Of a stretch of DNA of 64,000 nucleotides, positions 4,394-49,591 are shown in pieces. The notes below the pieces were generated by a model. That model searched no databases and was not told the origin of the DNA. It worked only from the letters and a program-made list of their open reading frames with translations. Both the position numbers and the translations under genes were made by a program. Source of the DNA: an uncultured Thermodesulfobacteriota bacterium (GTDB lineage Bacteria > Desulfobacterota > B13-G15). The stretch is from NCBI GenBank assembly GCA_964543765.1, contig CAZIZI010000001.1, forward strand, positions 170,475-234,474, given 5' to 3'. Positions within the stretch are counted from its first letter, which is position 1. Each line of letters opens with the position of its first letter.

Positions 4394-4395
4394 AT

Positions 4396-5061
4396 ATGAA
4401 ACTTCCAGTTAATAGATTAATCATCGGTATTTCAGGAGCAACAGGTGCAATTTATGGTATTAAACTATTGGAAGTGTTAAAGCGCTTAGGTATTGAAAGT
4501 CACGTTGTAATTACCGATCCTGCAAAAAGAACTATCCTTTATGAAACTGATTATAGTTTAGATCAAGTTAAGTCTTTAGCTACTTATTATTATGATATAA
4601 ATAATATTGGTGCTGCCATTGCAAGTGGTACATTTAAAGTGGATGGAATGGTAGTTATTCCGTGTTCGATAAAAACGCTTTCAGCTATTGTTAACTCTTA
4701 TAATGTTAATTTGTTAATCAGAGCAGCAGATGTAACTTTAAAAGAGAAAAGAAAGTTAATTTTAGTAGTAAGGGAAGCTCCTCTTCACAAAGGGCATTTG
4801 GAGTTGATGATGAAGGCGTGTGATCTGGGGGCGATTATATTACCTCCTATGATGGCTTTTTATTTTAGACCTAAGACGTTGGAGGAAATGATCGATCATT
4901 TGATAGCCAAGGTGTTAGGACTTTTGGGAATTGAGTATTCGAAGTTTCAAGGTTGGGGGATAAAGGAAGGAGAAGAGATAGAGAGGTTGGAGATAAATGA
5001 CGTTGAGAGAGTGGGTAGAGTTCCTCAGAGAAAAAGGGAGGCTTATATCCCTAAAAGATGA
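4396..5061 (+). CDS. ubiX: flavin prenyltransferase UbiX (prFMN synthase)
   Basis: N-terminus RLIIGISGATGAIYGIKLLEVLK is the classic UbiX/Pad1 flavoprotein signature; the last ~20 codons overlap the true N-terminus of the next UbiD gene in another frame. Confidence 0.9.
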   Translation: MKLPVNRLIIGISGATGAIYGIKLLEVLKRLGIESHVVITDPAKRTILYETDYSLDQVKSLATYYYDINNIGAAIASGTFKVDGMVVIPCSIKTLSAIVNSYNVNLLIRAADVTLKEKRKLILVVREAPLHKGHLELMMKACDLGAIILPPMMAFYFRPKTLEEMIDHLIAKVLGLLGIEYSKFQGWGIKEGEEIERLEINDVERVGRVPQRKREAYIPKR

Positions 5062-6378
5062 AATTTCTCCTCAGTGGGAGATTTCGGCAGTCTTAAAGAT
5101 TTTTCAAAAAGGCAGATAAAAAAGGGGGTTCTTTTCGAAAGAATCAAAGGTTATGAGGCTTATCGAATAGTTGGGCACTTATTTTTGGAAGAAGATTATT
5201 TTTTGAGTCCGGAAAGCGGCATTGAAGATATAAGTGATTGGTATGAAAAAAGAAGGGGTAAGCCTATTCCCCCTGTTTTAGTTAAATGGGGACCGGTGAA
5301 AGAGGTGAGAATAAATGGTAAAGGGCTCGAGCTTAAGAAGGAGATTCCGGCTTTAGTTCATCATGAAGAAGATGCAGGCCCTTATCTTACTGCAAGTGTA
5401 GTAATCGCTAAAGATCCAGAAACAGGCCGAAGGGGAATGGGAATACATCGAATCCAGATCGTGGAAGAGAACCGAATAAGGATCTTTATCGCTAACCCTC
5501 CCCTCTCATTGTTCGTAAAAAAAGCTGAAGAACTAAAAAAGCCTTTAGAAATAGCTATCATTAACGGACTTGATCCAATAACGATTTTTTCGGCCATCCT
5601 TCCTTTACCAGAAGAGGATAAACTGGCAATCGCGGATGCCCTCAGAAACAAAACCATTCCATTGGTCGAAGCAGAAATAATAGAGTTACAAATCCCTGCC
5701 GAAGGAGAAATAGCCTTAGAAGGGCTTCTTTATCCTGATAAAAAGGAAATAGACGGTCCCTTTGGTGAAAATACTGGTTATTACTTCACTAATGAAAGCT
5801 ATGTGAGTATTATCAAAACATTAACCCGTAGAAAAGATCCAATTTACCACGTAATACTTCCATTTTCTTCTGAAGTCGAAAACCTTATCAATTTGGCTTG
5901 GGAGGTTGAAGAATTTAAAAAACTTAAAAACAAATTTAATTTTGTGAAAAAAGTAAAATTTTATCAAACCAGAATGTTAGCCGTAATTCAAATACAAAAG
6001 GAAAGTGAGGAACAAGTGTCTTTAATAATTGATTATTTTTTAAATCAACCAATAATCAAAGGAGTTATAGTTGTTGATGAGGATGTGAATGTGAATGATT
6101 TAAACGAAATATTTTGGGCTTTAATGACGAGAGTTAATTTTGAAAAGAGTATCTTTTTAAGAAGAGAAAAACCCGGTTGTCCTATTGATCCTACGGCAAA
6201 GATTTATTATAGAGAAGAATCGCAATTTTACGGACTTTATCCTAAGACTACTAAAATTGGAATTAATGCTACAAAACCCCTCGATGGAAAGGAACGTTTT
6301 AAAAAGGTGGAGGTGCCTCTATCTGTAGCGAAAAGATTAAAAGGAGTGTTAGGAATTGATAGGGGAAATAACTTTTAA
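4997..6378 (+). CDS. UbiD-family decarboxylase, short paralog 3; N-terminus (from ATG 4997) and body (ORF 5074-6378) are in different frames: frameshift or sequencing indel near 5100-5115
   Basis: Frame from 4997 encodes MTLREWVEFLREKGRLISLKDEISPQWEISAVLKIFQKGR*, the canonical UbiD N-terminus; body frame continues KKGVLFERIKGYEAY...DAGPYLTASVVIAKDPETGRRGMGIHR...ENTGYY; switch lies in a tttttcaaaaagg run. Confidence 0.6.
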
Positions 6379-7342
6379 AGCTAACTTTTTGAGCGGCGTT
6401 GGGAAAGGTGCTTTTTTTGTGAATATCGATTGGGTTAAAGAGGGCATTCGTAAAAAATTTGGCTTTTTGCCTTTTCCTGGAACGTTGAATTTAAAGGTTA
6501 AGAAGGAGGATTTTGAAAAATTGCAAAAAATAATCCCGAAAGGCTATGTTTTGATTCCTCCTGCCTCCTCTTTTTGTGTAGCGCGTTTCCTGAAGGGTAA
6601 GGTGGGTGAGGTGGAGGGAGTTTTTGTCTTTCCAGAAGAAAGGGTTTGGCTTCACAGGAACGTATTAGAATTTATTGCTCCTTATAAGGTTAAAGAGAGG
6701 ATGGAATTGAAAGAAGGAGACCAGGTTGAATGCGCTGTGTTTTTTAAATTCACGCCTGACGCAGTAATATTCGACCTTGATGGGGCATTGGTTGATCCAT
6801 CGGAGGCTTATGAGGAGATCTTAAAAATAATAAGCCAAAAGTTTAAATTATTGCCTCCTTCTAAAGAAGAAATAAAAAACCTCATCAAAGGGAGAAAAGA
6901 TCCATGGAGTTTCATTTTTTCAACCTTGGATAAAGAAAAACTCGAAGAAGCAAAAAATTTGGATAAAATGCTTTTACCTCAAATATATCCTAAAAAGACA
7001 AAACTACTGCCTTATGCAGTTGAGCTTATAAAAGAATTAAAGAAGAAAGGAATAAAACTCGCAATATGTACCAATCAATTAGAGTTGAGCAATGAGATAC
7101 ATGAATTGCTTGAAGAAAAGGGAATAAAGGATTTTTTTGATTTGATAATTGTGCGTAGATTGGGTGAATATTTTGATAAAAAAGAAGCAATAAAAATTTG
7201 CTGCGAAAAATTTGGAGTCGATATTTTATTTTCGGTATATGTAACTGATGACAAAAAAGAAGCAGAATTATGTAAAGAAATTGGAATACAATGTATAATT
7301 GTGGAAAATCTGGAAGAAATTGCTCAGATACTTTGGAATTAA
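6356..7342 (+). CDS. CTP-dependent (archaeal-type) riboflavin kinase domain fused to a C-terminal HAD-superfamily phosphatase domain
   Basis: N-terminal SGVGKGAFFVNIDWVKEGIRKKFGFLPFPGTLNLKV matches the MJ0056-type RibK motif (G-G-G...GF-P-GTLN); C-terminal half has HAD motif I FDLDGALVD, motif II Thr (ICTNQ), motif IV VTDD; TTG start with AAAGGAG RBS. Confidence 0.7.
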   Translation: MIGEITFKANFLSGVGKGAFFVNIDWVKEGIRKKFGFLPFPGTLNLKVKKEDFEKLQKIIPKGYVLIPPASSFCVARFLKGKVGEVEGVFVFPEERVWLHRNVLEFIAPYKVKERMELKEGDQVECAVFFKFTPDAVIFDLDGALVDPSEAYEEILKIISQKFKLLPPSKEEIKNLIKGRKDPWSFIFSTLDKEKLEEAKNLDKMLLPQIYPKKTKLLPYAVELIKELKKKGIKLAICTNQLELSNEIHELLEEKGIKDFFDLIIVRRLGEYFDKKEAIKICCEKFGVDILFSVYVTDDKKEAELCKEIGIQCIIVENLEEIAQILWN

Positions 7343-7344
7343 AA

Positions 7345-8343
7345 ATGGACGAAAGGAGTTTAAAGGACAAGCAAATAGAGATTTGTCTCAAAGAAAAAGT
7401 TGAGGATGAAGGTGATAATGGTTTTGATTTTTTTAAATTAGAGTATCAAATTCCAGATTTTTCTTTTGAGGAAATAGATATTTCTTTAGAATTGTTAGGG
7501 AAAAAATTAAGTTTTCCCTTGATTATTGCTCCTTTAACTGGGGGAGGACATAAGTCATTAGAGATCAATAAACGATTAGCTGAAGCTGCCGAGATTATGG
7601 GCATAGGGATGGCTCTTGGTTCTCAGAAGTTAATGGTTAAGTATCCGGAGTTGAAGGTTACGTATTATGTAAGGGATGTGGCTCCTTCCATATTGTTATT
7701 CAGTAACTTGGGCTTAGTGCATCTTAATTATGGAATAGGGTATGATGAGTGTATGTATGTGGTTGAGGAAGTGGGGGCAGATGGTCTTATGTTGTATGTA
7801 AATCCGTTGCAGGAGGTATTTCAAGAGAATGGAATGGTGAATTTTAGTGGAATTTTGAGGAAGTTAGAGGATCTTTGTAAGCGTTTTCCTTATCCTATTG
7901 TGATAAAAGAAATAGGGTATGGGATATCGCGTGATTTCATGTTGAAGTTAAAGGGGGTCGGAATATGGGGTATTGATGTGGCGGGACGAGGGGGTACAAA
8001 TTGGGTAAAGATTGAGTGTTTGCTTAGATCAAAAGAGGTACCCGCAGGTTTTGAAGAAATGGGCGTTTCTACTGCTTTGGCCCTTAAGGAGGCTTCTGAG
8101 ATTATAAAAGATAAAGCGATTTTTGCCTCTGGAGGCATAAGAAAGGGCAGCGAGATAGCTAAAGCCATTGCTTTAGGAGCAAAGGCGGTGAGTATAGGGC
8201 TTCCTTTTCTCAGATGGGCTTCTCAAGGCGTTGAAGCGATACTTAAAGGAGTGGAGACCCTAAAGGAAGAACTGCGATTTTGGATGTGGTATACTGGATC
8301 TAAGGATCTTAAGTCTCTTCAAGGAAAGATAAGGGAAAAATGA
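7345..8343 (+). CDS. fni: type 2 (FMN-dependent) isopentenyl-diphosphate delta-isomerase
   Basis: MDERSLKDKQIEICLK...FPLIIAPLTGGGHKSLEINKRLAEAAEIMGIGMALGSQ aligns with IDI-2 (Fni) N-terminus including the GGG loop; start placed at ATG 7345 right after the previous stop (ORF-track start 7291 overlaps the upstream gene). Confidence 0.85.
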   Translation: MDERSLKDKQIEICLKEKVEDEGDNGFDFFKLEYQIPDFSFEEIDISLELLGKKLSFPLIIAPLTGGGHKSLEINKRLAEAAEIMGIGMALGSQKLMVKYPELKVTYYVRDVAPSILLFSNLGLVHLNYGIGYDECMYVVEEVGADGLMLYVNPLQEVFQENGMVNFSGILRKLEDLCKRFPYPIVIKEIGYGISRDFMLKLKGVGIWGIDVAGRGGTNWVKIECLLRSKEVPAGFEEMGVSTALALKEASEIIKDKAIFASGGIRKGSEIAKAIALGAKAVSIGLPFLRWASQGVEAILKGVETLKEELRFWMWYTGSKDLKSLQGKIREK

Positions 8344-8888
8344 CAATTTACTTCTCCAAAAGAGTATCAGGCGAAGGTTGGATAAGTTTCGAAAGTGATC
8401 CTTATTTGTCTAAAACCAAAAGAAGAATTTATGAAAAATGTTTGCCTTGTCTCGAAGAATTCCTCCAACAGTTAGAAGAAGGAAAACGAGAAATAGATCT
8501 TGGGCCTGCTTATGATTGTTGGAAATTGACTGTTGTCCTTAATGACTTTGAAGAATGTTTGAAATTATTAAATGCCTTTAGCGAATTATATCCTAATGAA
8601 TATGTAATAGGAAAATTTGGAACAGGAACTCTCGAGAAGCCTACTAAAGCCGTGGTTTTTCATGTAGATGAGAAAAAGGCATTAAAAGGATTAGTAAAAA
8701 AAGTACGGGAAACATTACGGAAACTAAATTTGTCTTCTAGCATAAAGATTACGCGAGGTTGTTCTAATCCTTATGAATATCTTTTTGGTCCTTCCAAAAA
8801 ATGGAGAAGGACAATTAATCCTCTTTATCCTGAGAGAATTCCTGAAGTGATAAGAAGAGTAAGGAGGATGATCTATTTTTCGAGCTAA
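8340..8888 (+). CDS. hypothetical protein (182 aa), translationally coupled to fni
   Basis: ATGA overlap with fni stop; no recognisable family motif. Confidence 0.4.
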   Translation: MTIYFSKRVSGEGWISFESDPYLSKTKRRIYEKCLPCLEEFLQQLEEGKREIDLGPAYDCWKLTVVLNDFEECLKLLNAFSELYPNEYVIGKFGTGTLEKPTKAVVFHVDEKKALKGLVKKVRETLRKLNLSSSIKITRGCSNPYEYLFGPSKKWRRTINPLYPERIPEVIRRVRRMIYFSS

Positions 8889-9466
8889 AAAATCCTCGGT
8901 TCTTGTCCAACGATTAGGCGTTTAATGTTTGAAAAGTGGCGGATAATTATAAAAGAGGAAAGGAGGAGGGTCAAAGAAAAAAGAGATGGCGGTTCTACTT
9001 TTAATAGATAAAGAAAACAAGGTATACTTAAAGCTCCCGAGATGGAACCCAAAGAAACCTTTCTAGTGATAAGAAGGACAATCATAAAAATCCCCAAGCT
9101 TAAAACCAAAGGAAGTGGGGTAATTACCAAGTATAACCCGGTAGCAGTGGCTACGCCTTTTCCCCCTTTAAATTTAAGAAAAAGCGGAAAAAGATGACCG
9201 AAAAAGGCAGAAAGCCCAAACAAAAACCCCCATTCAGGTCCGTAAAGGCTTTTACCCACAAAGGCTGGTACACCCCCCTTGAGGAGGTCGCTTATTAAAG
9301 TCAAAAGGCCCATAGTTTTACCGGCGGTTCTCATCACATTTGTAGCTCCTATATTTCCGCTTCCCCCTTTTCGGGGATCTACGCCTTTCATTTTGGCGAA
9401 TAAGAGACCGAAAGGGATTGATCCCAAAAGGTAAAAGGAAAAAAGGAAAAATACCCGCCACCCCAT
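8885..9466 (-). CDS. plsY: glycerol-3-phosphate acyltransferase PlsY
   Basis: MGWRVFFLFSFYLLGSIPFGLLFAKMKGVDPRKGGSGNIGATNVMRTAGK is the PlsY signature. Confidence 0.9.
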   Translation of the reverse strand: MGWRVFFLFSFYLLGSIPFGLLFAKMKGVDPRKGGSGNIGATNVMRTAGKTMGLLTLISDLLKGGVPAFVGKSLYGPEWGFLFGLSAFFGHLFPLFLKFKGGKGVATATGLYLVITPLPLVLSLGIFMIVLLITRKVSLGSISGALSIPCFLYLLKVEPPSLFSLTLLLSSFIIIRHFSNIKRLIVGQEPRIF

Positions 9467-9479
9467 TTTTACCTATTAA

Positions 9480-9556
9480 TGGTCGGGATGACTGGATTTG
9501 AACCAGCGACCCCCGCGTCCCGAACGCGGTGCTCTACCAGGCTGAGCCACATCCCG
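9480..9556 (-). tRNA. tRNA-Pro (anticodon CGG), CCA encoded
   Basis: Reverse complement reads CGGGATGTGGCTCAGCCTGGTAGAGCACCGCGTTCGGGACGCGGGGGTCGCTGGTTCAAATCCAGTCATCCCGACCA; 7-bp acceptor stem CGGGATG/CATCCCG, D-arm GCTC...GAGC, anticodon loop TTCGGGA (CGG), T-arm GGTTCAAATCC; very similar to E. coli tRNA-Pro. Confidence 0.85.
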
Positions 9557-34158: not shown

Positions 34159-35019
34159 ATGAGGAGGGTAGAGGTTATAGGGCTTTTGAGTCTGGGGATT
34201 GGTTTGGTTTTGGCAGTTTTGGCCTTTTTGGAGAAATTGAGGGTAGAGGAAGTGGGTTTTGATGTTTGTAGAAGTGAATCTTGTGAGGTTGTTCAGTATT
34301 CCGGGTTTTCGGACCTTTTTGGTTTTCCCATAACGCTATTTGCGATCTTAGCCTTAGGTGGGGTTATCCTTCTTTGGTTTTTGCGGAGAAAAGAAAAGGC
34401 TCTTTTTATTCTGGCCTTTTTGGTTGGGTGTGAAGCTTATTTGACCTTTATTGAGTTTTATTATTTAGAAGGGAAGTGCCCTCTGTGTATAGCTTTTTTA
34501 AGCAGTTTAGTGATAGGGTTTGTTTTTTCGGTTCTTCAAAGGTTTAGACCATCCCTTTTTTGGTTTATGGCCTTAGGGTTTTTGGGATTGCATTTTCTCT
34601 TCTTCTTTCCGAGATTTGATCTCGCTTATACCCCCTATTTTGACCCCAAGGGAAAGGTTATTGAAGTTTTTCTTTCGCCAAGAGAGTCTCGGATCCTCAA
34701 AGAACTTCAAGGCTTTTTAAGCCAGAGAGGTTTTCAATTGTGTCCGAGGTTTGTCCCTCAAGATCCTTCGTCAAGAAGGGAGGCCCTTTTAGAGATGGCC
34801 AAAATGCTGTTTTCTGAACCGAGTGAAGAAGCTTTGAGGGTCTCAGAAAGGACGTTAAGGAGGAATGAAGAGGAGCTTAAAAATTTTAACGGTTCCCTTC
34901 CCCTGTTGGTAGTGAAGGAAAAGGGAGAAGTGAAAAAGGTGATAAGTGGTCCCAATTGGAGAGAGGAACTTGAGGAATACTTCTCTTTGCCCCCTTTGTT
35001 TTTCTTCAGTTCGCCTTAA
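34159..35019 (+). CDS. VKOR (vitamin K epoxide reductase) family membrane protein with C-terminal soluble extension
   Basis: Loop Cys pair CRSESC and membrane-embedded CxxC (GKCPLCIAF) within 4-5 TM helices as in VKOR homologues. Confidence 0.6.
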   Translation: MRRVEVIGLLSLGIGLVLAVLAFLEKLRVEEVGFDVCRSESCEVVQYSGFSDLFGFPITLFAILALGGVILLWFLRRKEKALFILAFLVGCEAYLTFIEFYYLEGKCPLCIAFLSSLVIGFVFSVLQRFRPSLFWFMALGFLGLHFLFFFPRFDLAYTPYFDPKGKVIEVFLSPRESRILKELQGFLSQRGFQLCPRFVPQDPSSRREALLEMAKMLFSEPSEEALRVSERTLRRNEEELKNFNGSLPLLVVKEKGEVKKVISGPNWREELEEYFSLPPLFFFSSP

Positions 35020-37345
35020 GGGATAGCAAAGCCCTTTTGAGTATCACCCTTGTTATTTCGATCTTATAAGCGTTTTTGTTAAGAGGAAGGGTTTCTTTTA
35101 CGGCCATTTTGGCTGCTTCTTCTATTACTAGGTCTTCTAGCTTTTTGTCCTCAAGCCAACTTTCAACTTCCCTTACCCTTAGAGGTACCGGAGCTACCCC
35201 TCCAAGAGCGATGCTAATTTTTTTGACCACTTTTTCGTTTATTTCTGCGACAATTCCTACACTTACGATCGGAAAATCGATAGAATTTCTGAGCCTGAAC
35301 TTCATGAATACTTGAGGGAGATTTGCCATTTCCTTGGGTATTAAAATCTCCGTTAAGATCTCATCGGAAGCCAAATTGCCTCGGACGGAAGTAAAAAATT
35401 CCTCTACTGGAATTACCCTTGTCCCATTGGAAGTGATTATTTTCAATTTTGCCCCTAAGGCCATTAGCGCCACCGCCATATCTGAAGGATTTACCGCCAC
35501 ACAGCCGCAGTTGAAACATCGGTCTGCTTCCTTTTGAATTTCTTCGAACTCAAAGGGCTTTTTTTCTTTGAAACTAGTGAGCCTTTCGATCTTTTTGAAA
35601 GCCTTAATATTAACTTTGTGAAGGGTCTTTTTGGAAGAGGAAGGGCTTTCTTGGGCAAATTCTCCCAGAAGGAACCGATTTATTGAAACTACTGCCTTTT
35701 TCGCAGAAGCTATTGATTCAACTACCGTTGAGGGACCACTTACGAAATCTCCTCCTGCGAATAGGTTTTTCCCCAAAAAGTAAGAGGAATCAATCTTTAA
35801 ATTCCCCTTTTCATCAATGAAGTCCGAGGGCAAAAAGGAAAGATCCGCTCTTTCCCCCACTGCCTTTATCACCGCATCGTACTCTTCCTCGAATTCCGAT
35901 CCGTAAATGGGAAGGGGTGTAGGTCTACCTGATTCATCCTTAGGCCCAAGGCGCATTCTAACGGAGCGAAGGATCAATTTTTCTCCTTTTTTCTCAAGAC
36001 CTATAGGCTGAGTCAAAAATTCAAATTCTACGCCTTCCTCTTTGGCTAATTCCCTTTCTTCCTTCAAAGCCGGCATTTCGTTCTCCGTTCGACGGTAGAG
36101 GATTTTGGGTTTTGCCTTAAGTCTTAAAAGACTTCTTGCTACATCTATAGCCACGTTCCCACCGCCTATTACCGCTACCTTCTTCCACTTAAACTCTTTT
36201 TGATCCAAATTAATGCTTCTCAAAAAATTCAAACCGCTTAATGCCAACTCTTCACCTGGAATGCCCATTTCCCTTTCCTTCCAAGCCCCTATGGCCAAAA
36301 GCACAGCATCATATTGAGCACATAGATCCTCTAAAGTCATGTCCTTGCCCAAATGGACGTTGAATTTAAACCCGATTCCCAAAGCCTTCTTAAAGGCTTC
36401 AACCACTTTGTTTACGATCCTCTTATTGAGCCTAAATGGAGGTATCCCATATCTTAAAAGTCCACCTGCTTCGCTTTCCCTTTCAAAAATTACTACATCG
36501 TGTCCGCTTTTTCTCAAGTAATAAGCGGCGGTAAGTCCCGCCGGCCCGGATCCAACTATTGCCACTTTTTTCCCCGTTTTCTTATCGGGTAAAGAGAGAA
36601 GCTTGGGCAGGTTCTCAAGAATATAATCTCCCAAAAACCTTTCCACTTCCCTTATCGCCACAGGTTCATCGAATTCTTTTCTGGAGCATCTATCCTCACA
36701 AAAACGAGGGCAAATGCGGCCGGTTATAGAAGAAAGGGGATTAATCTCAAGAAGCATCCTAGCTGCTTCGTCGTTTTTCCCTTCTCTTAAGTTTTCCAAA
36801 ATGGAAGATATGTCAGTGTGAACTGGACAGGCATCCCAACAAGAGGTAGGACGATTCGTATGTTTATAGCATCCAAAAATCGAATGGTAATGGTTTTCTC
36901 CAGTTAGAGCGTAACAAGTATCCCCACCCTTTAGATAACAAGTCAAACGACCCCCTATCTGATGGGGATACCAAAAATACCAACATCGTACCTCCTGACA
37001 CAGATTACCCCCGATTGTGCCCATATTCCTTATTTGAGGCGTTCCTACTGAAGAGGCCGCTTCTTTAAGCAGAGGATATTTTTCAAGCTTCCCAGATCTT
37101 ACGATTTCCTCCAATTTCGTTAAGGCCCCTATCTTGATCGCCTCTTCATCTTCTTCGATTAAGGATAATCCCGGTATCTCCTTAAGGTTTATCAAAGCCT
37201 TTGGGTATTCCGGATAAATGTCCTTTTTTAAGGCAGGGATTAAAACTGTGCCGCCTGCTATAAGTTTCGCCTTTCCATTATACTTTTTTAACAAACTAAT
37301 TGCTTCTTCCAATGTATGAGGGGTGAAATGCTCAAATGGCTTCAT
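35006..37345 (-). CDS. xanthine-dehydrogenase-family medium (FAD) subunit with an inserted GltD-like NAD(P)H-dependent FeS flavoprotein module
   Basis: N-terminal CoxM/XdhB FAD-binding domain (KLIAGGTVLIPAL); then GltD/NfnB-like segment (ITGRICPRFCEDRCSR; KKVAIVGSGPAGLTAAYYL; second Rossmann VAVIGGGNVAIDVAR); then CO-dehydrogenase-flavoprotein C-terminal domain; 779 aa versus ~290 aa for a plain CoxM. Confidence 0.7.
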   Translation of the reverse strand: MKPFEHFTPHTLEEAISLLKKYNGKAKLIAGGTVLIPALKKDIYPEYPKALINLKEIPGLSLIEEDEEAIKIGALTKLEEIVRSGKLEKYPLLKEAASSVGTPQIRNMGTIGGNLCQEVRCWYFWYPHQIGGRLTCYLKGGDTCYALTGENHYHSIFGCYKHTNRPTSCWDACPVHTDISSILENLREGKNDEAARMLLEINPLSSITGRICPRFCEDRCSRKEFDEPVAIREVERFLGDYILENLPKLLSLPDKKTGKKVAIVGSGPAGLTAAYYLRKSGHDVVIFERESEAGGLLRYGIPPFRLNKRIVNKVVEAFKKALGIGFKFNVHLGKDMTLEDLCAQYDAVLLAIGAWKEREMGIPGEELALSGLNFLRSINLDQKEFKWKKVAVIGGGNVAIDVARSLLRLKAKPKILYRRTENEMPALKEERELAKEEGVEFEFLTQPIGLEKKGEKLILRSVRMRLGPKDESGRPTPLPIYGSEFEEEYDAVIKAVGERADLSFLPSDFIDEKGNLKIDSSYFLGKNLFAGGDFVSGPSTVVESIASAKKAVVSINRFLLGEFAQESPSSSKKTLHKVNIKAFKKIERLTSFKEKKPFEFEEIQKEADRCFNCGCVAVNPSDMAVALMALGAKLKIITSNGTRVIPVEEFFTSVRGNLASDEILTEILIPKEMANLPQVFMKFRLRNSIDFPIVSVGIVAEINEKVVKKISIALGGVAPVPLRVREVESWLEDKKLEDLVIEEAAKMAVKETLPLNKNAYKIEITRVILKRALLSLKAN

Positions 37346-40131: not shown

Positions 40132-40224
40132 ATATTGACTCTCCTCAATTTTTCAACCACGATTAAGTTATAGCACAAGAAATAATTTATTGAAATTACG
40201 GTACAGGTATATAATTTATACCTA

Positions 40225-42853
40225 ATGGGGTTGAACGAGGCTGATACAAGGGCTATTCTCGTTGAACACAAGCTCAAAGCTGCTGGTTGGACAGATCAAC
40301 AAGTTAGAAGGGAGTTTTTCTATCACCGTGATCATCAGTATACTCCAGGGCGCATAATATTAGTAGGTGATAGAGTCAAACGAGGAAAACCCCGAAAGGT
40401 GGATTATCTTCTACACCTGACTGATGGTTTTGAGATAGCTGTAATAGAAGCGGAACCCGAGGATAGTCCGGCAGAAGCCGGCTTAGAGCAAGCAAAGACT
40501 TATGCCAAAGATTTAGGATTAGCCTTTGCCTATGCTACAAATGGACACAAGATCTTGGAATATGACTTTTTCACTCATACGACAAGAGAACTTGCGAACT
40601 TTCCTCGTCCCGAGAAGCTTTGGTATCGGTGGAAAATAAACACAGGGTTGAGCTCCTTAGAGTTTACCAAGGAGGAACGTTCAGCCTACCTTTCTAAGTT
40701 AGGAGCGGAACGATACCAAAATCCTCTTCTTTATAGCTATTGTTCGGAAAGCCTTTGTGGGAAAAGACCGTTCTATTTTCAGGAAGTGGCGATTCCTGAG
40801 ATTATAAAGCGTATCATGCGCGGACAACGCCGAATTCTTTTAACCATGGCTAAAGGTACTGGAAAGACATTTGTGGCTTTCCAAGTTGTGTGGAAGCTTA
40901 TAAAATCCGGATGGCTTCAAAGGGGGCATCCTAATAAGCCCACACGTGTTTTATTTTTGGCCGATCGGATTGCCCTTCGTGATCAAGCCTATAACACTTT
41001 TGCACCCTTTGCAGACGGAGTAAACGAACCTCGCTTCAAAATTGAAGGACACCCTCCGAGTTTCACGCGTGACCTTTATTTTGCAATTTATCAGACATTA
41101 TGGAGTCCTAATGAAGAAGGAAAGCGCCTTTTTGAGCTTTACCCACCGGACTTTTTTGACCTGGTGATCATCGATGAATGTCACCGTTCAGGTTGGGGGA
41201 CTTGGCGGGAGATACTCGACCACTTCAAGGATGCCATTCACTTGGGAATGACCGCCACCCCAAAGCAGGATGAAAATATCGATACATACGAATACTTCTG
41301 TCAGGAAGAGCCTGAGGTATTTATTGATCCTGAGCATCCCGAAAAAGGAAAGCGCCTTACTGCTGCTTATGAGTACATCTTGGGGCGAGGCATCGAGGAT
41401 GGATTCCTTGCTACGTATAAGGTGCATCGTGTTCGAACCACGGTGGATAAAGAAGGATTGCGTCTTGAGGATGCCATCGAACAATGAGCTGAGGTTTTCA
41501 TCCCTGAGGATGTAGAACCAAGGGGATATTACACCACTCCTCAATTTGAGCGAGAGATTACCCTTCCAGATCGTACAAAAGCCATGGTCAATCACTTAGC
41601 TAAGCTTTTGCGCAAGTTCGGGTTTTGGGAAAAGACCATGGTTTTCTGGGTGGAAATAGAGCATGCTCGACTCGTGGCTAAATTACTGCAGGATGAATTT
41701 GGTCCGGAAACAGGTTTTGATAACTACGCCGTCCTCATCGTTTCTGAAGAGGGTGCGGAACGCCAGGCGATGGCTTGAAGATTTTGTAAATTCAGAGAAA
41801 GGCGCCATTAGTAGCTACCACGGCGGAGCTTCTCACTACCGGTGTAGATGCTCCGCCTTGTGGAAACATCGTGTTCATGAAGACCTTTTCTTCGCCACTT
41901 CTTTTTAAGCAGATCATAGGCCGGGGAAGTTGCATTGACCCGGCTACAAATAAATACTGGTTTCGCATCATAGATTTTACCAGGGTAACAAAACTTTTCG
42001 ATGAGTGGGATCGTTCCGGGCAAAGAATTATCTAGCGGCCTCAAGGCCCCTTTACTGCTTCTATTTCTGGTCGCGTGTTCCATGCGCAAACGGGTGATCT
42101 CATTGTGGGAGCTCAGGTAAGCGTTCGCACAGGACCCAACACCCAGCAAGGTTCCATTCGTACAGACCAAAATGGCTCTTTATTTTTGAGGAGCTACCAG
42201 CCGAAACCGTTACCCTGATTGTCAGTGTTCCGGGTTTTGTGCGACGTGAATTCAAGGTGGGAACCCTTGCAGATCAAACTGTGGAGATCAATGGTTTCCT
42301 AAAACGTGAGAGCAAAAGAAAATCTAAGATAGAAGTTGAAGGGTTAACCGTAGAAATCGCGGATGAAGCGATTTTTATAATGGAGTCAACTGGGCAACAA
42401 CTCACTTTGGAGCAGTACCGAGATTATACTCCTCGAAAGATCATTCAAGTTGCTCCCACAAGAAAAACTTTGCGCCAGATCTGGATAAACCCAGAAAAGC
42501 GCCAGCATTTCTTAGAAGAGCTTCGTCGGTCTGACATTCATCCTGAGGTTTTTAGGGAAATTCTTAACCAAAATGAGGCGGATACGTATGATCTTTTGCC
42601 CCATCTTGCCTTCGGGGCCCCCATTCGTACAAGAAGCGAACGAACCCTAGCGTTCCGAAATCGCGAGCAAGCATTCTTACAGCGCCACAGCGAGAACGCA
42701 CCTCAAGTCGTCCTCGCGCCTTTGGAAAAATACCGCGTGGGGTTGAGGAATTGCAACCGAAGGTGTTCGGCCTTTCCCCATTCCGGGAGTGGGATGAAGC
42801 TTTTTGCATTCAAAATTGGTTTGGTGGTGCGGAAGGGCTCGCCCGAACCTTGA
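40225..42853 (+). pseudogene. hsdR: type I restriction enzyme R subunit (HsdR), disrupted into >=4 fragments
   Basis: N-terminal MGLNEADTRAILVEHKLKAAGW (HsdR N-domain), DEAD-box IIDECHRS, then stop at 41487; continuation in shifted frames (41584-41908) and EcoEI-R-C-like C-terminal domain ORF 42239-42853. Confidence 0.75.
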
Positions 42854-42926
42854 AGAAATCCAGAAGCGCATTTACCCTGAAGAGGAGGTGGTAGTAAGAT
42901 GAACCGGCCACAGACGAAGGGAAACA

Positions 42927-43907
42927 TTGGCCAATGAAATCTGGAGGGCTTGTAACATCCTTCGCCAAGACAACAACTGCACTGGTATTATGGAATACGT
43001 AAAGCATTTATCCTGGCTTCTCTTTCTTCGTTTTCTGGACGCCCAGGAAGAGGAGTGGGAAACTCAGGCCAAGCTTGAACGCAAAGAGTATCAGCCGATC
43101 ATCGAGCCGCCCTACCGTTGGCGGGATTGGGCTACCAGAGACTGGTCTGCGGAGGAGCTCCTTTCTTTTGTTCATGGCCGCCTTATTCCTTACCTCCAAA
43201 ATCTTGGAGATGATCCCGTTCGCGCGATCATCCGCGGAATTTTCGCTGAAAGAAACGTTATCGTCTGTGCCTCCGGCTACAACCTAAAGGACGTTCTTCA
43301 AATCATCAACGGCATCGATTTCTACTCCCAGGATGACATATTCACCGTATTCCAGGTTTACGAGGAGTTACTTCGTCGCTTAGGCAGTGAAAACTGCCTG
43401 GCCGGAGAATTCTATACTCCAAGACCAGTTGTTCGTTTTATTGTGGAAGTTGTGGACCCCAAAATTGGGGAAACCATCTATGACCCAGCCTGCGGAACCT
43501 GCGGCTTTTTGGCCCAAGCTTATTTACACATGCGCAAATACGAGCAAACCATTGAGGATCACAGGATTCTTCAGGAGCAAACATTTTATGGCCAGGAAAA
43601 GAAACTCATTCCAGTCCTTCTTGGTCTCATGAATATGGTCCTTCACAGCGTGACTATACCCCGCATCGCCCGCCGAAATACCTTGGGAGAAAACATCCGC
43701 CATGTTACCGAACATTATGATGTGATTATGACAAATCCCACTTTCGGCGGGACAGAAGGTATACATATTCAGCATCATTTCCCCATCCGGTCTCAGGCTA
43801 CGGAGCTTCTTTTTCTACAGCACATCATGGAAAAGCTAAAACCCAGAGACGGTGCCCGCTGCGGTATGGTCGTGCCCGAAGGAACCCTTCCATTGTGGAG
43901 GAGCTGA
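42927..43907 (+). pseudogene. hsdM: type I R-M DNA methyltransferase subunit (HsdM), truncated (~326 aa of ~500)
   Basis: HsdM N-domain ANEIWRACNILRQD...HLSWLLFLRFLD, AdoMet motif DPACGTCGFL, catalytic NPTFGG (NPPF-type); ends prematurely after MVVPEGTL; upstream start region also out of frame. Confidence 0.65.
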
Positions 43908-43934
43908 ATGAACTCCTCAGCTCCAATGAGAAGG

Positions 43935-44261
43935 AAAAAAACAATGGATGACATTCGGAGCTTAGCAGAGAAAATACGAACGGACCTAAAGGAACGCTAT
44001 GACTCAAAAGTTCTACAGATCATCCTTTATGGCTCGTAAGCGCGCGGTGAGGCCACTTCTGAATCCGACATGGACCTTTTAGTGGTGGTAGACGATTCTT
44101 TGGATCCATGGGAAGTCCGTCGGAATCTGGACGATTTGCTTTTGGACATACTTCTTAGGGATGGCCGTTTGGTTTCCGTTTTAGTGGTGCCAAAAAGCTT
44201 CTATGAAAGCTACCACTCGCCCTTTTTGAAGCAAGTCCACAAGGAGGGAATTCCCCTGTGA
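43935..44261 (+). pseudogene. MNT-type nucleotidyltransferase (antitoxin of HEPN/MNT pair) with in-frame TAA
   Basis: ILYGS*ARGEATSESDMDLLVVVD: the GSxARGx9SDxD NTase motif is interrupted by TAA exactly where a conserved Tyr (TAY) is expected. Confidence 0.7.
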
Positions 44262-44266
44262 AGTAA

Positions 44267-44619
44267 GTGCAAGATTTTGTCGCCAAAGCTGGGCGTTTTC
44301 TCAAAAGTGCGGAACACCTTTTGGCCCTCGGTGACTACGATTCCTGTGCCTCGAGATGTGATTACGCCATGTTTTTATGGCTGAGACAGCCTTAATGGTA
44401 AAGGAGGTTAGCGCATCCTCTCACCGGGGTGTCATAAGCCTTTTTGGTCAGCACTTTATCCGCACGGGAATTTTCTCGGCAGAATTAGGGCGTGCGTTAA
44501 GTCGGGCTTACGATGTGCGCCTTACAGGTGATTATGCGGTTGGTTTAAGCGTGAGCCGTGAGAAGGCGGAAAACCTTCTGGAAGCTGCCCGGCGGTTTGT
44601 CGCCGAAGTGCGGGCCTAG
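44267..44619 (+). pseudogene. HEPN domain protein (toxin partner), frameshifted
   Basis: N-terminal frame AKAGRFLKSAEHLLALGDYDSCASRCDYAMF and C-terminal frame ...SHRGVISLFGQHFIRTGIFSAELGRAL...RLTGDY together form a HEPN domain; frames switch in a ttttta run near 44375. Confidence 0.6.
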
Positions 44620-44642
44620 CTGGAAAGGGAGGCGGAGAACCG

Positions 44643-45703
44643 ATGACCAAGGGACCCTACAAACTTCCTGAAGGCTGGCGGTGGGTGCGGTTGGGGGAGG
44701 TGTGCAATGTTGAGCACCGAACAATAATTTCTCGTTTACAGCCTCCCTGCCTATGATAAAAACCGGTCCCCTGAGCTACTTAAAAGGGGCTGAGACAGGT
44801 AGTTCAAAGTTAGTCATCAAACCTGGGGTTTGCTTATTTTCAAAACTTAATCCAAGGATTCCCCATGCATGGGCTGTAAAAGGAAATCCGTCCGTTCTCA
44901 ATATACCGTTACTTGCCTCCACCGAGTTCATGTCGTTGCGGCTACATTTCCAAAAGCTCAATTTGGACTATCTACGTCCACTTTTGTTATCCGATATTTT
45001 CCTTAACCAAATTCGTACAAACGTTACAGGATGATCAACTGATAGCAGGCAAAAACTAAGACCCGATAGAGTGCTTGATGCTCTTGTTCCCTCCCATCCC
45101 TTGAAGAATAAAAACGCATTGTGGCGCGGATTGAGGAGCTGATGAGAAGAGTGCTGGAGGCGCGGCGCTTAAGGAAAGAAACAACAAAAAAGAAGCCGAC
45201 CACCTCTGGCAAGCCGTCCTCGCCCAAATCTTCCCCCGCCCCGGCTCGAAACTTCCAGAAGGCTGGTGTTGGGTATGGTTGGGAGAAGTTTTTTCGGTTA
45301 AAAAATGGCAAATTCATCCCGGCAAGTGATCTTGCATCCCAAGGCAAAATTCCTGTTTATGGGTCTAATGGATTACTGGGCTTCACAATTGTACACTTGT
45401 TCACGGAAGGAAAGACAATAGTGATGGGCGTGTGGGCGCTTGTGGTGCAATCAATGTAGTTGATGCACCATTTTGGATATCCGATAACGCCATGTTTGGT
45501 GCTAAATGGCTCACTGAGTGTGAGATAGAGTACATTGCCCTGGTGTTGCGCAGTATAGATTTATCCTCATTTGCTAAAAAGGGACACGACCTTCCATTTC
45601 GTAAGAGATGGTTTACAACGCTCTCGTCCCCCTTCCACCCCTTGAAGAGCAGTGCCGGATTGTGGCACACCTTTACGAGGTGCAGAAAAAAACAAGGCCT
45701 TAA
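44643..45703 (+). pseudogene. hsdS: type I R-M specificity subunit (HsdS), multiple frameshifts/stops
   Basis: MTKGPYKLPEGWRWVRLGEVCNV (HsdS start), TRD-like LFSKLNPRIPHAWAV...LNLDYLRPLLLSDIFLNQIR, central RIEELMRRVLEARRLRKE, second LPEGWCWVWLGEV, C-terminal VPLPPLEEQCRIVAHLYEV, all in different frames. Confidence 0.7.
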
Positions 45704-45749
45704 AAGAAGCCCAAGCCCAAACGGAAGCAGAACTTAAAAGAGCTCTCCG

Positions 45750-46385
45750 AGTTTAAAAGGCTAAGTGAAAAGCTCATGGAACGGGGACCAGAGGCCCTCT
45801 CGGAGGCTGAGCTTTTGGTCATTTTCCTCCGCACAGGGGTGGAAGGAAAAGCGCCCTGGACTTGGCTCACTCCATTTTGGAGAAGGCCAGGCCTGAGCTT
45901 CCTCGCTGGTCCGTAAAGGAACTCGCCCAAATTCCCAGTGTAGGTGTGGCCAAAGCTTGCGAAATCGTGGCTGCCTTTGAGCTTGCCCGCTCTCTTATTC
46001 AAGGAAAACGCCCAGCCATTAACCAAAAGATGTTTTCCCTTTAGCGCAAGATCTTTTGGATAGGAAACAAGAGTATCTCTTCATCCTCTTTCTTATGGGT
46101 GCTAACGAAGTTATCGCAAAGAAGGTCATAAACTGTAGGCTTCCTGGATTCCGCACAAGTGCATCCACGGGAGATATTTGCTGAGGCTATTGCAGATCGG
46201 GCTGCGGCTATTATCCTTGTTCACAACCACCCATCAGGTAAACTTGAACCAAACCCCCAAGACCTTTTCGTTACTCGTCGTTTAGTTGAGGCCGAAAAGC
46301 TTTTTGGAATAGACGGTTTGGCCGTGTGATCGTCGCCAAAACCGGTTGGTTTTCCTTCGTTAAGGAAGAACTTCTCGGGTTAGGA
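45750..46385 (+). pseudogene. radC: RadC-like JAB-domain protein, frameshifted
   Basis: [18 protein letters not shown] / [13 protein letters not shown]...[29 protein letters not shown] and later VHPREIFAEAIADRAAAIILVHNHPSGKLEPNPQDLFVTRRL (JAMM motif HNHPSG) lie in three different frames. Confidence 0.65.
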
Positions 46386-46387
46386 GT

Positions 46388-47542
46388 TTATCCATCTTTT
46401 AGTGATTCCCAAATGACCTTCGTGATATAGGTGACCTTTTTGCCCATCTGGCCAATTTTATTCGTGTAGTTCAGGTTAAAAGTGCAGAAGGGACAAGGGC
46501 TTATTAACTCTTCGGTTTCCGTTTGCTTTAGTAAGGTACTAGCAATATCAAAAGAAAGGTTTTTGAAAGCTGATCTTATCCCTCCGCCCGATCCACAACA
46601 TAATGTTTCTTCCCGTGAACGGGAAAGTTCATAAACATCGATCCCACACAACTTTAACAGCTCTCACGGTTCCTTGGTGTATCTTTCGCCTCGGCCTAAA
46701 CGGCAACTGTCATGATAAGTGACTTTTCTTTCCACTTTTCTTAAAAGGGAAGGGTCCTTCTTTAATTCCTTGTAAATGACCTGAAGCACATGAAAGACTT
46801 CAAAATCGACTGACCCCAAAACTTCCCGATAAAAATACTTGAAACACTTCAACAACCGTTACAAGCCACAATAAGCCTTGTTATACCGAGTTTCTTAAAA
46901 CGATCTGCGTTTTCTCGGAAAAGCCTTTCAGCTATCTGGACTTCGCCGGCTTCATATATATAAGTGCCACAGCATCCTTCATCCTCAAGGATCATGAAAT
47001 CTATCCCCAGTTTTTTAAGCACAAGATAGGAATATACAGCCGCATCTTTAACCAGATAAGAGGGCAAGCACCCCACAAAAAACAAAGTCCGAGACCTTCG
47101 AGGCTCAAAGGGCTCAGGAACCCATCGCAGTCTTTCCGAGGGATCTCCGTTTACGCTGTTTCCCTTTTCTAATATGCCTTGAATAATCTTTTTATGAACG
47201 GGAAGAGGTCCTTTTCCATTTTTCACAATCTTGTTCCTAATGAGAGCAACGATTTTGCTTACTTCAATGTCCTGAGGACAAACCACTTTCACAAGCCGCA
47301 CATTTGGGACAGTTATAAAAAGTGGTGACCATTTCTTCCGTGATTTCACCGCTTTTCATGAGGTTTTTAACGCTTTTTAAACGCCCTTTGGGGGAGAAAA
47401 AGGGATTTTTTGTGGCTATGTAAGTTGGGCAGACCTCCAAACAAGCATCGCAATCATTACATCTTTCAATTCGACTTAGAATCCAATTGTCCTGCATTGT
47501 ATTGTTTAAAGTTATATAACCTAATTCTTTTAGAAGTTGCAA
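46388..47542 (-). pseudogene. HdrD/GlpC/LutA-like FeS oxidoreductase (2x[4Fe-4S] + two CCG domains), split into 4 ORFs
   Basis: Fragment 1: CNDCDACLEVCP + CPKCAAC; fragment 2: first CCG domain (GCCG...ACNGC); fragment 3: YHDSCRLGR; in-frame TGA; fragment 4: second CCG domain (CCGSGGG...CPFC). The TGA sits where homologues have PRELLK (Arg CGA to TGA). Confidence 0.65.
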
Positions 47543-47570
47543 ATTTTTTGTGCTTTCTGGATAATAAAAA

Positions 47571-49028
47571 ATGATGGGAGGAATAAAAGCGAAGTTTTGG
47601 GAAGGAGTTCTTGGAACAGGACTTTTGTTTTTGGATATCGCCCCTTTTCGAGGGTTTTTGCTCCGAAAAATAGAAGGTTACTTATGGCAGAGGATCGTCG
47701 AAGGGGAAAAGGATACTATAAGACCTGCTCAGGAGCTGAAGTTTTATTTTGTAAGGAACCTTTTACGGACAACCGATCACCATCTGAGAAAGGGTTGGCT
47801 TCATAAGGATATTTTCCACCGGATGGTGAAGGTCTTTGTCAGAGGTGTTCTCACCGAGGACATCGAGTATAGGGAGAGGAAAAAGCAAAAAGGAGAGGAT
47901 TATCCTACTCCTTCCTTTATCGTAATAAGCCCCACTCAGGCCTGTAACCTTCAATGTCCGGGTTGTTATGCCTTAAGCGGACCCTCCAGTAAAGTCTCTC
48001 TTCCTTGGAGCGTGGCAAGTAGGATCATCGATGAGAAAGCTAGGCTCTGGCATTCCCATTTTACGGTGGTTTCAGGTGGAGAGCCCTTCATGTGGAAAAG
48101 TGAGGGGAAGGACTTGCTTGATCTTGCCGAAAGGCACAATGACAACTTCTTCATGGTATACACCAATGGGACTCTGATAGACGAAAGGGTTGCCGAAAGG
48201 CTTAGGAAACTCGGGAATTTCACTCCCGTCATCTCCGTTGAGGGGTTTGAAGAAAATACCGATCGCCGCCGAGGCAAGGGCACTTTTAAGAAGATCCTTC
48301 GAACCTTTAAAATCCTTCGCGAATACGGGGTTCCCTTTGGTATTTCGGTTGTGGCGGAAAAGCACAATTGGGACGAGGTCACAAGTTGGGATTTTCTGCG
48401 ATTCTTCTTCGATGAGCAGGGTGCATTTTATGGTTGGCTTTTCCAATACATGCCCATTGGACGGGGTTACACGCTTGAAAACATGGTTGGTCCTGAGGAA
48501 AGGCTTGAGATGTTCCGAAGGAACGTGGAGGCTATTAAGGCCGGATATAACTATATCGATTTTTGGAATGAGGGTCCGATGACCGACGGTTGCTTGGCAG
48601 CGGGTAGGTCAGGGGGTTATCTCTATATAGATTGGAAGGGCGATGTTATGCCCTGTGTGTTTGTACCTTATAAGGTTGACAATATCCTTGAGATTTACGA
48701 AAGGGGTGGAACCATCGATGAAGTGCTGAGTTCGGATTTCTTCAGAAGGATAAGGAATTGGCAAGATCAATATGCCTTAAAGAGACCCCCCAAGGAAAAG
48801 GGCAACCTCATTATGCCTTGCCCGATAAGGGATCATCATGAGTTCATGTGGAGTATTTTGAAGGAGACAGGGGCAAAACCCACGGATGATGCAGCCGAGG
48901 AGGCTCTTTTCGATGAGGCTTACCATCAAGGTTTAATAAAATATGACCAAGCCCTGTCCCTTCTTTTGGACCCAATTTGGGAAGAGGAGTTTTTGAAGGA
49001 CCGTTTTCCCTTAAGAAAACTCCCGTGA
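47571..49028 (+). CDS. radical SAM enzyme with ~120-aa N-terminal extension (family unresolved)
   Basis: CNLQCPGCYA (Cx3Cx2C) at aa ~125-134 with glycine-rich SAM motif region VVSGGEPF; 485 aa; C-terminal region lacks a full 7-Cys SPASM motif. Confidence 0.7.
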   Translation: MMGGIKAKFWEGVLGTGLLFLDIAPFRGFLLRKIEGYLWQRIVEGEKDTIRPAQELKFYFVRNLLRTTDHHLRKGWLHKDIFHRMVKVFVRGVLTEDIEYRERKKQKGEDYPTPSFIVISPTQACNLQCPGCYALSGPSSKVSLPWSVASRIIDEKARLWHSHFTVVSGGEPFMWKSEGKDLLDLAERHNDNFFMVYTNGTLIDERVAERLRKLGNFTPVISVEGFEENTDRRRGKGTFKKILRTFKILREYGVPFGISVVAEKHNWDEVTSWDFLRFFFDEQGAFYGWLFQYMPIGRGYTLENMVGPEERLEMFRRNVEAIKAGYNYIDFWNEGPMTDGCLAAGRSGGYLYIDWKGDVMPCVFVPYKVDNILEIYERGGTIDEVLSSDFFRRIRNWQDQYALKRPPKEKGNLIMPCPIRDHHEFMWSILKETGAKPTDDAAEEALFDEAYHQGLIKYDQALSLLLDPIWEEEFLKDRFPLRKLP

Positions 49029-49591
49029 AAAAAGCCCTAATCCTTCTGTTGATCTTATTGATGGCTTGCTTCCCCAAAAGACCTACGCCTCTTTTTGAGG
49101 CGTGTTTTTCTTTTGAAGAATTACCCAAAATTATGAGAGAAATCTTAGAAAATCCAAAAAGCCTTAAGGGGAATTTTTCCCTTAGAATCTCGGCCAAAGA
49201 AGGGGGTTTTGTGATCCGAGGAAAGTTCGTGTACCGAGAAAAAGAAGGGCTTTGGGCTTTGGGCCTTGATCCTTGGGGAAGTGAACTCTTCAGACTGTGG
49301 ATAAAGGATGATGATCTTTCCCTTTTTTATTCCAAGAGAAACGTGCTTTTTATCAGTAAGTTTAAAGGAGGCAAAATTTGCCTCTCCTTTGAGGAGGGTG
49401 TTGGGGGGCCTTCTAAAATTTTGTCTGGCAAAGTGAGGGGGCTTGATTTCCGTCTCATTTTGACTGAACTCGAAGAGAGTCAAGAGATCCCTCCGCAGAT
49501 GGACGTTTATTCTTATCCTTCTTTTTTCATAAGTGACCTATGGAGTTTATTTTTTGGGCCTTCAGTTGAAGGGAAAGAGGAAGTAGAATAA
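49025..49591 (+). CDS. lipoprotein (LolB/LppX-like fold possible), hypothetical
   Basis: GTG start overlapping upstream stop; signal peptide KKALILLLILLMAC with lipobox LMAC; no catalytic motif. Confidence 0.45.
   Translation: MKKALILLLILLMACFPKRPTPLFEACFSFEELPKIMREILENPKSLKGNFSLRISAKEGGFVIRGKFVYREKEGLWALGLDPWGSELFRLWIKDDDLSLFYSKRNVLFISKFKGGKICLSFEEGVGGPSKILSGKVRGLDFRLILTELEESQEIPPQMDVYSYPSFFISDLWSLFFGPSVEGKEEVE

Follow-up and report, generated by a model that had tools for sequence, protein, structure and literature searches.

The remains of what is very probably a type IB (EcoAI/FtnUII-family) restriction-modification (R-M) cassette lie in a 64,000-nucleotide (nt) stretch of contig CAZIZI010000001.1 (the whole stretch is referred to here as the window), from an uncultured Thermodesulfobacteriota bacterium with a genome of ~1.6 Mb. 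On the plus strand, positions 40225-46387 carry hsdR, hsdM, a gene for a minimal nucleotidyltransferase (MNT), a HEPN gene, hsdS and radC in sequence, all six broken and reduced to short frames. The cassette had the form hsdR-hsdM-[MNT-HEPN]-hsdS with a radC-like gene downstream, and from its present reading frames no restriction, methylation or toxin-antitoxin (TA) activity would be expected. On one side it borders a molybdo-hydroxylase operon, at the gene for the 2Fe-2S subunit, and on the other an Fe-S/CCG gene. Since the latter is also a pseudogene, the decayed block is 7.3 kb long and ends at 47497; an earlier note on this DNA was thus right about the decay of the block and wrong about where it stops.

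Lesions were counted against near-intact alleles from relatives. L016 served on the hsdR/hsdM side, L012 from MNT to the Fe-S/CCG gene, and L040 bridged hsdM and MNT; a single continuous intact reference was impossible, as there is no overlap between L016 and L012 and another gene follows hsdM in L016. In the six island genes ~28 small lesions were found, of which 19 are indels that shift the frame and 9 are in-frame stops. With the Fe-S/CCG gene the count is 31 (21 frameshift indels and 10 stops), or ~4/kb. Small deletions outnumber small insertions ~2:1, and three larger stretches of ~0.45, ~1.0 and ~1.3 kb are missing. The inactivating lesions are fixed in every contig of the window species examined. 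The features of the block are as follows.

40133-40224, plus strand: intergenic leader from the host 2Fe-2S subunit gene to hsdR (high-identity alignment to L016/L017)
40225-42902, plus strand: hsdR pseudogene, EcoAI/FtnUII (type IB) family (Pfam, nucleotide alignment to L016)
40225-41487, plus strand: ResIII/DEAD match (Pfam)
42239-42853, plus strand: EcoEI_R_C match (Pfam)
42899-43951, plus strand: hsdM pseudogene (Pfam, alignments to L016 and L040)
42927-43907, plus strand: HsdM_N and the first part of N6_Mtase, profile positions 8-188 of 311 (Pfam)
43944-44261, plus strand: MNT pseudogene (77% amino acid identity to the intact L012 MNT)
44258-44646, plus strand: HEPN pseudogene (Pfam PF05168 in both halves; alignment to L012, L044, L050 and L054)
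44267-44395 and 44377-44619, plus strand: the two HEPN pieces (Pfam)
44643-45737, plus strand: hsdS pseudogene, the most eroded gene (alignments to the HsdS of L012 and of L060/L065/L074)
45737-45738, no strand: deletion junction; ~1 kb of the sister lineage is absent (hsdS 3′ end, orf118, orf164 and radC start)
45738-46387, plus strand: radC (UPF0758/RadC-JAB) pseudogene (Pfam UPF0758_N and RadC; alignment to L012)
45776-45916, plus strand: UPF0758_N match (Pfam)
46159-46329, plus strand: RadC-JAB match (Pfam)
46387-46388, no strand: junction lacking ~1.3 kb that the sister lineage has (TAT-signal metallo-beta-lactamase (MBL)-fold gene, 358 amino acids)
46388-47497, minus strand: host Fe-S/CCG oxidoreductase gene (TfrB/GlcF-like), pseudogene (93% nucleotide and amino acid identity to the intact 369-amino-acid L012 gene)

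The family of the cassette is indicated by hsdR, whose fragments match ResIII (2.6e-36) and EcoEI_R_C (4.3e-11) and are 82-89% identical in amino acid sequence to an allele of which L040 is an intact relative. The HsdR of L040, in which hsdR, hsdM and MNT are all open, scores 690 bits on NF046051 (cut-off 550), placing it in the EcoAI/FtnUII family. The MNT and hsdS pieces of the window gave zero Pfam matches on their own, and none of the hsdS pieces reached Methylase_S; their homology to intact relatives was found by alignment, at 77% amino acid identity for MNT and 40-76% for hsdS. The intact MNT of L012 matches PF01909. Membership of radC in the RadC/UPF0758 family follows from matches to PF20582 (3.9e-06) and PF04002 (5.1e-18) in separate fragments. 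Members of the cassette family, most of them intact, were also found in dozens of unrelated metagenomic contigs. The gene order hsdR-hsdM-MNT-HEPN-hsdS-radC proposed in the earlier note agrees with the Pfam matches and with alignment to intact relatives. Its inclusion of radC in a canonical order does not hold, radC being present in 0 of the 42 related cassette loci examined.

In hsdR, seven lesions are seen in the nucleotide alignment to L016, with stop codons read directly: G421 GGA to TGA at 41485, +1 at 41761, -2 at 41796, E604 GAG to TAG at 42033, -1 at 42182, -4 at 42737 and -1 at 42848. In hsdM the frame shifts by +1 at 42917 (codon 6), and ~453 nt are deleted internally at 43889/43890, taking away approximately reference codons 331-481; the last 20 codons persist out of frame. 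HsdM_N is present and N6_Mtase is incomplete.

MNT has a single lesion, a Tyr codon TAC changed to TAA at 44037-44039 within the G-S-x-A-R-G motif. The adjacent HEPN gene overlaps it by 4 nt and carries two nonsense changes, E3 GAG to TAA at 44264 and Y121 TAC to TAG at 44617, with a -1 frameshift between them at 44371, so that neither member of the pair has an intact frame. As the intact relative scores 34.1 bits against the cut-off of 60 of the MntA equivalog NF047752, it is a generic MNT and not a demonstrated MntA of a MntA/HepT type VII TA system. What lies between hsdM and hsdS varies among alleles in mosaic fashion: MNT-HEPN, another small gene (70 amino acids seen) or, in many, nothing. 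The small gene lies at

L016, 1-210
L041, 11472-11681
L069, 11472-11681

The most eroded gene is hsdS, in which eight frame changes (near 44722 and near 44783, and at 45087, 45182 (+2), 45288 (+1), 45424, 45584 and 45692) and four in-frame stops (44725, 45032, 45109 and 45602) were counted, and whose 3′ end, ~12 codons, was cut off by the ~1-kb deletion. Both target recognition domains (TRDs) and the conserved regions (CRs) can still be recognised by tblastn, yet no single open frame is left. The references were the L012 HsdS for CR1-TRD2-CR2 and the HsdS of L060, L065 and L074 for TRD1. L012 was dropped as the TRD1 reference because the domain is non-homologous and stops counted against it were artefactual; the recount used the latter three. 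The lesion density of hsdS is 11/kb versus 2.6/kb in hsdR (p=0.002). The first TRD of the window hsdS is of another type than that of the sister lineage and is 55-58% identical to those of L060, L065 and L074; this difference in type means that the TRD swap predates the death of the gene. In the sister lineage (L012 839-1936) the two TRDs of HsdS are near-identical, and for this reason a symmetric target is suggested for that enzyme.

At the 3′ side of the block, radC has lost its start codons and has frameshifts at 45843 (-1), 46020 (-4), 46129 (+1) and 46321 (-1). The Fe-S/CCG gene has three lesions (+1 at 47290, -1 at 46853 and R278 CGG to TGA at 46666-46664) and is a young pseudogene, since its divergence is host-like (93%, the same as the host flanks). 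The ~453-nt loss in hsdM and the ~1-kb loss between hsdS and radC are polarised as deletions by the genes that they truncate; for the ~1.3-kb MBL stretch the polarity could be the reverse, with the sister lineage having gained it by insertion. The two open reading frames (ORFs) orf118 and orf164 (118 and 164 amino acids; L012 1923-2279 and 2329-2823) lie directly 3′ of hsdS in at least nine EcoAI-family cassettes, the pair being seen also in L050, L055, L057, L065, L071, L072, L073 and L076. Neither gave a useful match against PADLOC, Pfam or NCBIfam, and they may be an uncharacterised accessory pair.

These counts bear out most of what the earlier note had read from the letters. It had hsdR in at least four pieces (tblastn finds four frames), hsdM truncated (the codon-6 frameshift and the internal deletion both contribute), hsdS with at least four frame changes (twice as many were counted) and TAA at a conserved Tyr codon of the nucleotidyltransferase, where three homologues have Y and two have H. 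The alignment to intact hsd relatives that it had proposed as a check supplied the 28 small lesions of the island genes and the 31 that include the Fe-S/CCG gene. Its view that nonsense substitutions mark real pseudogenisation is upheld by the 10 nonsense changes and by their presence in nine near-identical contigs from separate samples.

The loss of constraint is also recorded in the substitutions. In Tajima relative-rate tests with true outgroups (outgroup L042), the window branch has 197 substitutions against 128 on the other branch in hsdR (78 versus 31 at codon positions 1+2, p=1e-4) and 70 against 39 in hsdM (32 versus 7 at positions 1+2), while controls are balanced (73 versus 69 and 131 versus 125). 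Accelerated substitution under relaxed constraint on the window branch is therefore supported. The excess amounts to ~2.5% at every codon position, far above the diversity within the species of ~0.1%.

It is scarcely credible that the genes are truly intact and that errors of sequencing or assembly, such as those in homopolymers, created the frameshifts and stops. A few indels do lie in runs of 4-6 identical bases. Most indels are outside long homopolymers, and nine contigs of the window species (L001-L008, found by exact-protein look-up of the neighbouring 2Fe-2S gene, and L011, found by a further look-up), which were assembled from separate samples by different pipelines (ENA megahit, JGI and Logan), are 99.9-100% identical over the region. 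Flanking genes of 485-779 amino acids are open in the same contigs, 10 of the lesions are nonsense substitutions, read errors could not produce the three deletions of 0.45-1.3 kb, and substitution at codon positions 1 and 2 is accelerated on the window branch. Phase variation of hsdS and hsdM through repeat tracts is known in other bacteria, and the A-run at 43929-43935 is polymorphic (A7 in the window, A6 in L011). Nevertheless, a phase-variable or programmed-frameshift system that is conditionally functional through such tracts would have to accommodate 31 independent small lesions and large deletions across all genes, with half of the HsdM catalytic domain and the hsdS 3′ end physically gone, and its probability is negligible. 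Indels relative to the window were found in L011 only, as single bases at 43935 (hsdM tail) and 47566 (intergenic spacer); neither restores a frame, nor does any other variation between samples.

A somewhat less remote, still very improbable alternative is that the surviving frames have been kept for a new function. Both the 420-amino-acid HsdR N-terminal frame and the 326-amino-acid HsdM fragment are long, both are called as genes in several assemblies, and the latter retains HsdM_N and the first half of N6_Mtase. Against this, the HsdR fragment stops in the middle of the helicase motor, the HsdM fragment is without its start-codon region and its C-terminal half, and hsdS is destroyed, so that no DNA-recognition partner is left. 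The excess of substitutions at codon positions 1 and 2 in both hsdR and hsdM likewise argues against maintenance.

The same site is represented in two relatives in different states. In a sister lineage the host flanks are 93-97% identical in nucleotide sequence to the window and the island is at the same place. There, hsdR (894 codons; L016/L017) has the change W136 TGG to TGA as its only lesion (L016 3946-3980) and hsdM is intact (499 amino acids). MNT (108 amino acids), HEPN (129) and hsdS (365) are all intact in L012/L013/L015, followed downstream by the 118- and 164-amino-acid ORFs, radC with one in-frame stop (L012 ~3227-3229), the MBL-fold gene (358 amino acids) and an intact Fe-S/CCG gene (369 amino acids). 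With hsdR knocked out and hsdM, hsdS and MNT-HEPN open, the sister lineage could be in a methylation-only state. In a sister species (L009/L010, on a 1.6-Mb contig) that is 84-86% identical in nucleotide sequence, the alignment to the window ends at 40132 and ~60 bp replace 40133-47378. In this spacer the Fe-S/CCG gene survives as its first 43 codons (79% amino acid identity, E=9e-18), and there is no other trace of the island. A naive empty site was rejected because the 43-codon stub is retained, which makes the state of the sister species a secondary deletion.

The island alleles have diverged ~3 times as far as the host flanks. Compared with the sister lineage, hsdR, hsdM, MNT, hsdS and radC differ by 14-20%, HEPN by 11% and host genes by 2-10%. 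Distances in hsdR are 0.082, 0.061 and 0.346 at the three codon positions, and island third positions (0.30-0.36) exceed those of host genes (0.06-0.22). About 200 nt into hsdR the identity falls from ~97% to ~78% (breakpoint ~40400-40460), and the Fe-S gene marks the exact point at which it rises again to 93%; before the drop, hsdR and the leader resemble the sister lineage at the level of host genes. The island has a GC content of 47.8% versus 43.7% in the rest of the window, a value reached by 0.2% of equal-sized windows, although the immediate 10-kb flanks are at 44.9% and 46.0%. No integrase or transposase was found, and the genes listed leave no base of 40133-47570 unassigned. No tRNA lies near the island (the sole tRNA gene of the window is at 9480-9556), and flanking direct repeats were looked for and not found. 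The region thus lacks the marks of an integrase-mobilised genomic island (integrase or transposase, tRNA or att target, direct repeats), and borders made by any of these were rejected.

The best reading of this pattern would be that one allele replaced another at a fixed hsd locus through homologous recombination, without an integrase. Here the earlier note had seen a GC-richer region with no integrase or transposase, and took it for a horizontally acquired island undergoing erosion. The GC difference is real but modest, and the absence of mobility genes is confirmed over every base of 40133-47570. Horizontal or recombinational origin and erosion both stand, while insertion of the integrase type does not. 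A horizontal origin is favoured by the intact cassettes elsewhere, the third-position divergence, the identity step in hsdR, the GC content ~4 points up and the acceleration on the window branch. Under the alternative that the island is ancestral and vertically inherited, all of the extra divergence would be neutral decay, with no transfer or allelic replacement. The site and gene order shared by the window and the sister lineage would fit this, as would the host-like similarity of the leader and of ~200 nt at the hsdR 5′ end, and the acceleration itself. It is nevertheless unlikely. The divergence is mostly at third positions (0.35 versus 0.06-0.08 at positions 1 and 2) and hence accrued under purifying selection, and the ~2.5% neutral excess is too small to lift third-position values of 0.06-0.22 to 0.35. 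The change of identity within hsdR is abrupt, the hsdS TRD1 type differs between the two lineages, and the window is no closer to L016 than alleles from other contexts (L040 and L041) are.

Starting from allelic replacement, a history of the locus can be proposed. The island allele would have entered, or replaced its predecessor, by homologous recombination with a diverged allele, leaving the breakpoint in the 5′ end of hsdR. Selection for the R-M system would later have lapsed, and hsdS would have been the first gene to die. The lesion density of hsdS, four times that of hsdR, suggests that the specificity subunit was lost first. This would be a safe route, because loss of S ends restriction and modification together; the sister lineage would have taken the other safe route, with R lost first. 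Thereafter, ~2.5% neutral substitution and about twice as many small deletions as insertions would have accumulated while larger stretches were lost. The end state of the process would be complete deletion, as in the sister species. Taken together, the three lineages may form a full decay series at one orthologous site that displays both safe loss routes of type I R-M systems, a tentative reading for which the balance falls slightly short of even.

Several points weigh against this account. No outgroup tells if the R-M island was present before the deletion in the sister species, and the order of inactivation is drawn from lesion density only. The composite reference is gapped, with no overlap between L016 and L012 and a different gene after hsdM in L016, and the TRD1 references are only ~55% identical, so that the frameshift count in hsdS may be off by one or two. 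Residual activity of the 420-amino-acid HsdR and 326-amino-acid HsdM open frames would be excluded only by inference. Finally, single nucleotide polymorphisms within the species fall in the block in 7 of 8 cases in L001 (p=0.0045) and 4 of 5 in L002 (p=0.07), an enrichment that is suggestive only and is absent in L011, where 11 of 26 differences are in the block against 9 expected.

Some observations concern the surroundings of the island. In the molybdo-hydroxylase operon, the FAD/NAD-binding subunit (35006-37345, minus strand) has 779 amino acids versus 628 in the sister species, and its nucleotide alignment to L009/L010 breaks for ~500 nt (35770-36284). A 204-amino-acid ORF at 48977-49591 overlaps the 3′ end of the radical-SAM gene; its position is conserved in the sister lineages and no Pfam family is on record for it in the contig look-ups. 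The neighbouring radical-SAM protein, used as a query, returned only distant relatives (at most 78% amino acid identity; uncultured Thermodesulfobacteriota/Deltaproteobacteria) with no synteny at the island site. Positions 4001-9000 have a GC content of 33-38%, well under the window mean of 44%, and may be a further compositionally distinct block.

For annotation, the 7.3-kb block is to be marked as pseudogenes, and type I methylation or restriction should not be expected of it. If the proposed history is true, the series could serve to calibrate how long pseudogenes last and how strongly deletions prevail in a streamlined ~1.6-Mb genome. A natural series from near-intact through eroded to deleted would illustrate how a defence island is lost after selection lapses, even in a small genome. 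The locus otherwise belongs, in decayed form, to a system family already known; it is conceptually ordinary and reveals no new mechanism or family.

Like the EcoAI and EcoEI type IB systems, the cassette comprises hsdR, hsdM and hsdS subunits, with a ResIII/DEAD motor and EcoEI_R_C in HsdR. Unlike them, the window copy has no intact subunit, the HsdR of this clade is 894 amino acids long with a CarboxypepD_reg-like insertion, and MNT-HEPN is inserted between hsdM and hsdS. MNT-HEPN toxin-antitoxin modules, among them the MntA/HepT type VII TA system, accompany R-M loci (Makarova et al. 2013, PMC3632139). The window pair has the same organisation, with MNT preceding HEPN, overlapping stop and start codons and a position embedded in a defence operon. 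The arrangement is found intact in L044, L050 and L054, whereas in the window both genes are inactivated. The hsd genes of E. coli and Salmonella lie in an immigration control region, a single chromosomal site at which highly diverged allelic families are exchanged by homologous recombination. The present locus appears analogous in its fixed site, alleles much more diverged than the flanks, lack of an integrase and breakpoints at the edges; it differs in phylum and flanking genes, in that one allele is dead and in that one lineage has the locus deleted. Inactive or pseudogenised R-M systems are known in many bacteria, including Helicobacter pylori strains and host-restricted lineages, and bacterial pseudogenes are deletion-biased. 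The window locus resembles these in its multiple frameshifts and nonsense changes, ~2:1 deletion bias, larger deletions and excision in a relative, and departs from them in that closely related environmental lineages present near-intact, eroded and deleted stages at a single orthologous site.

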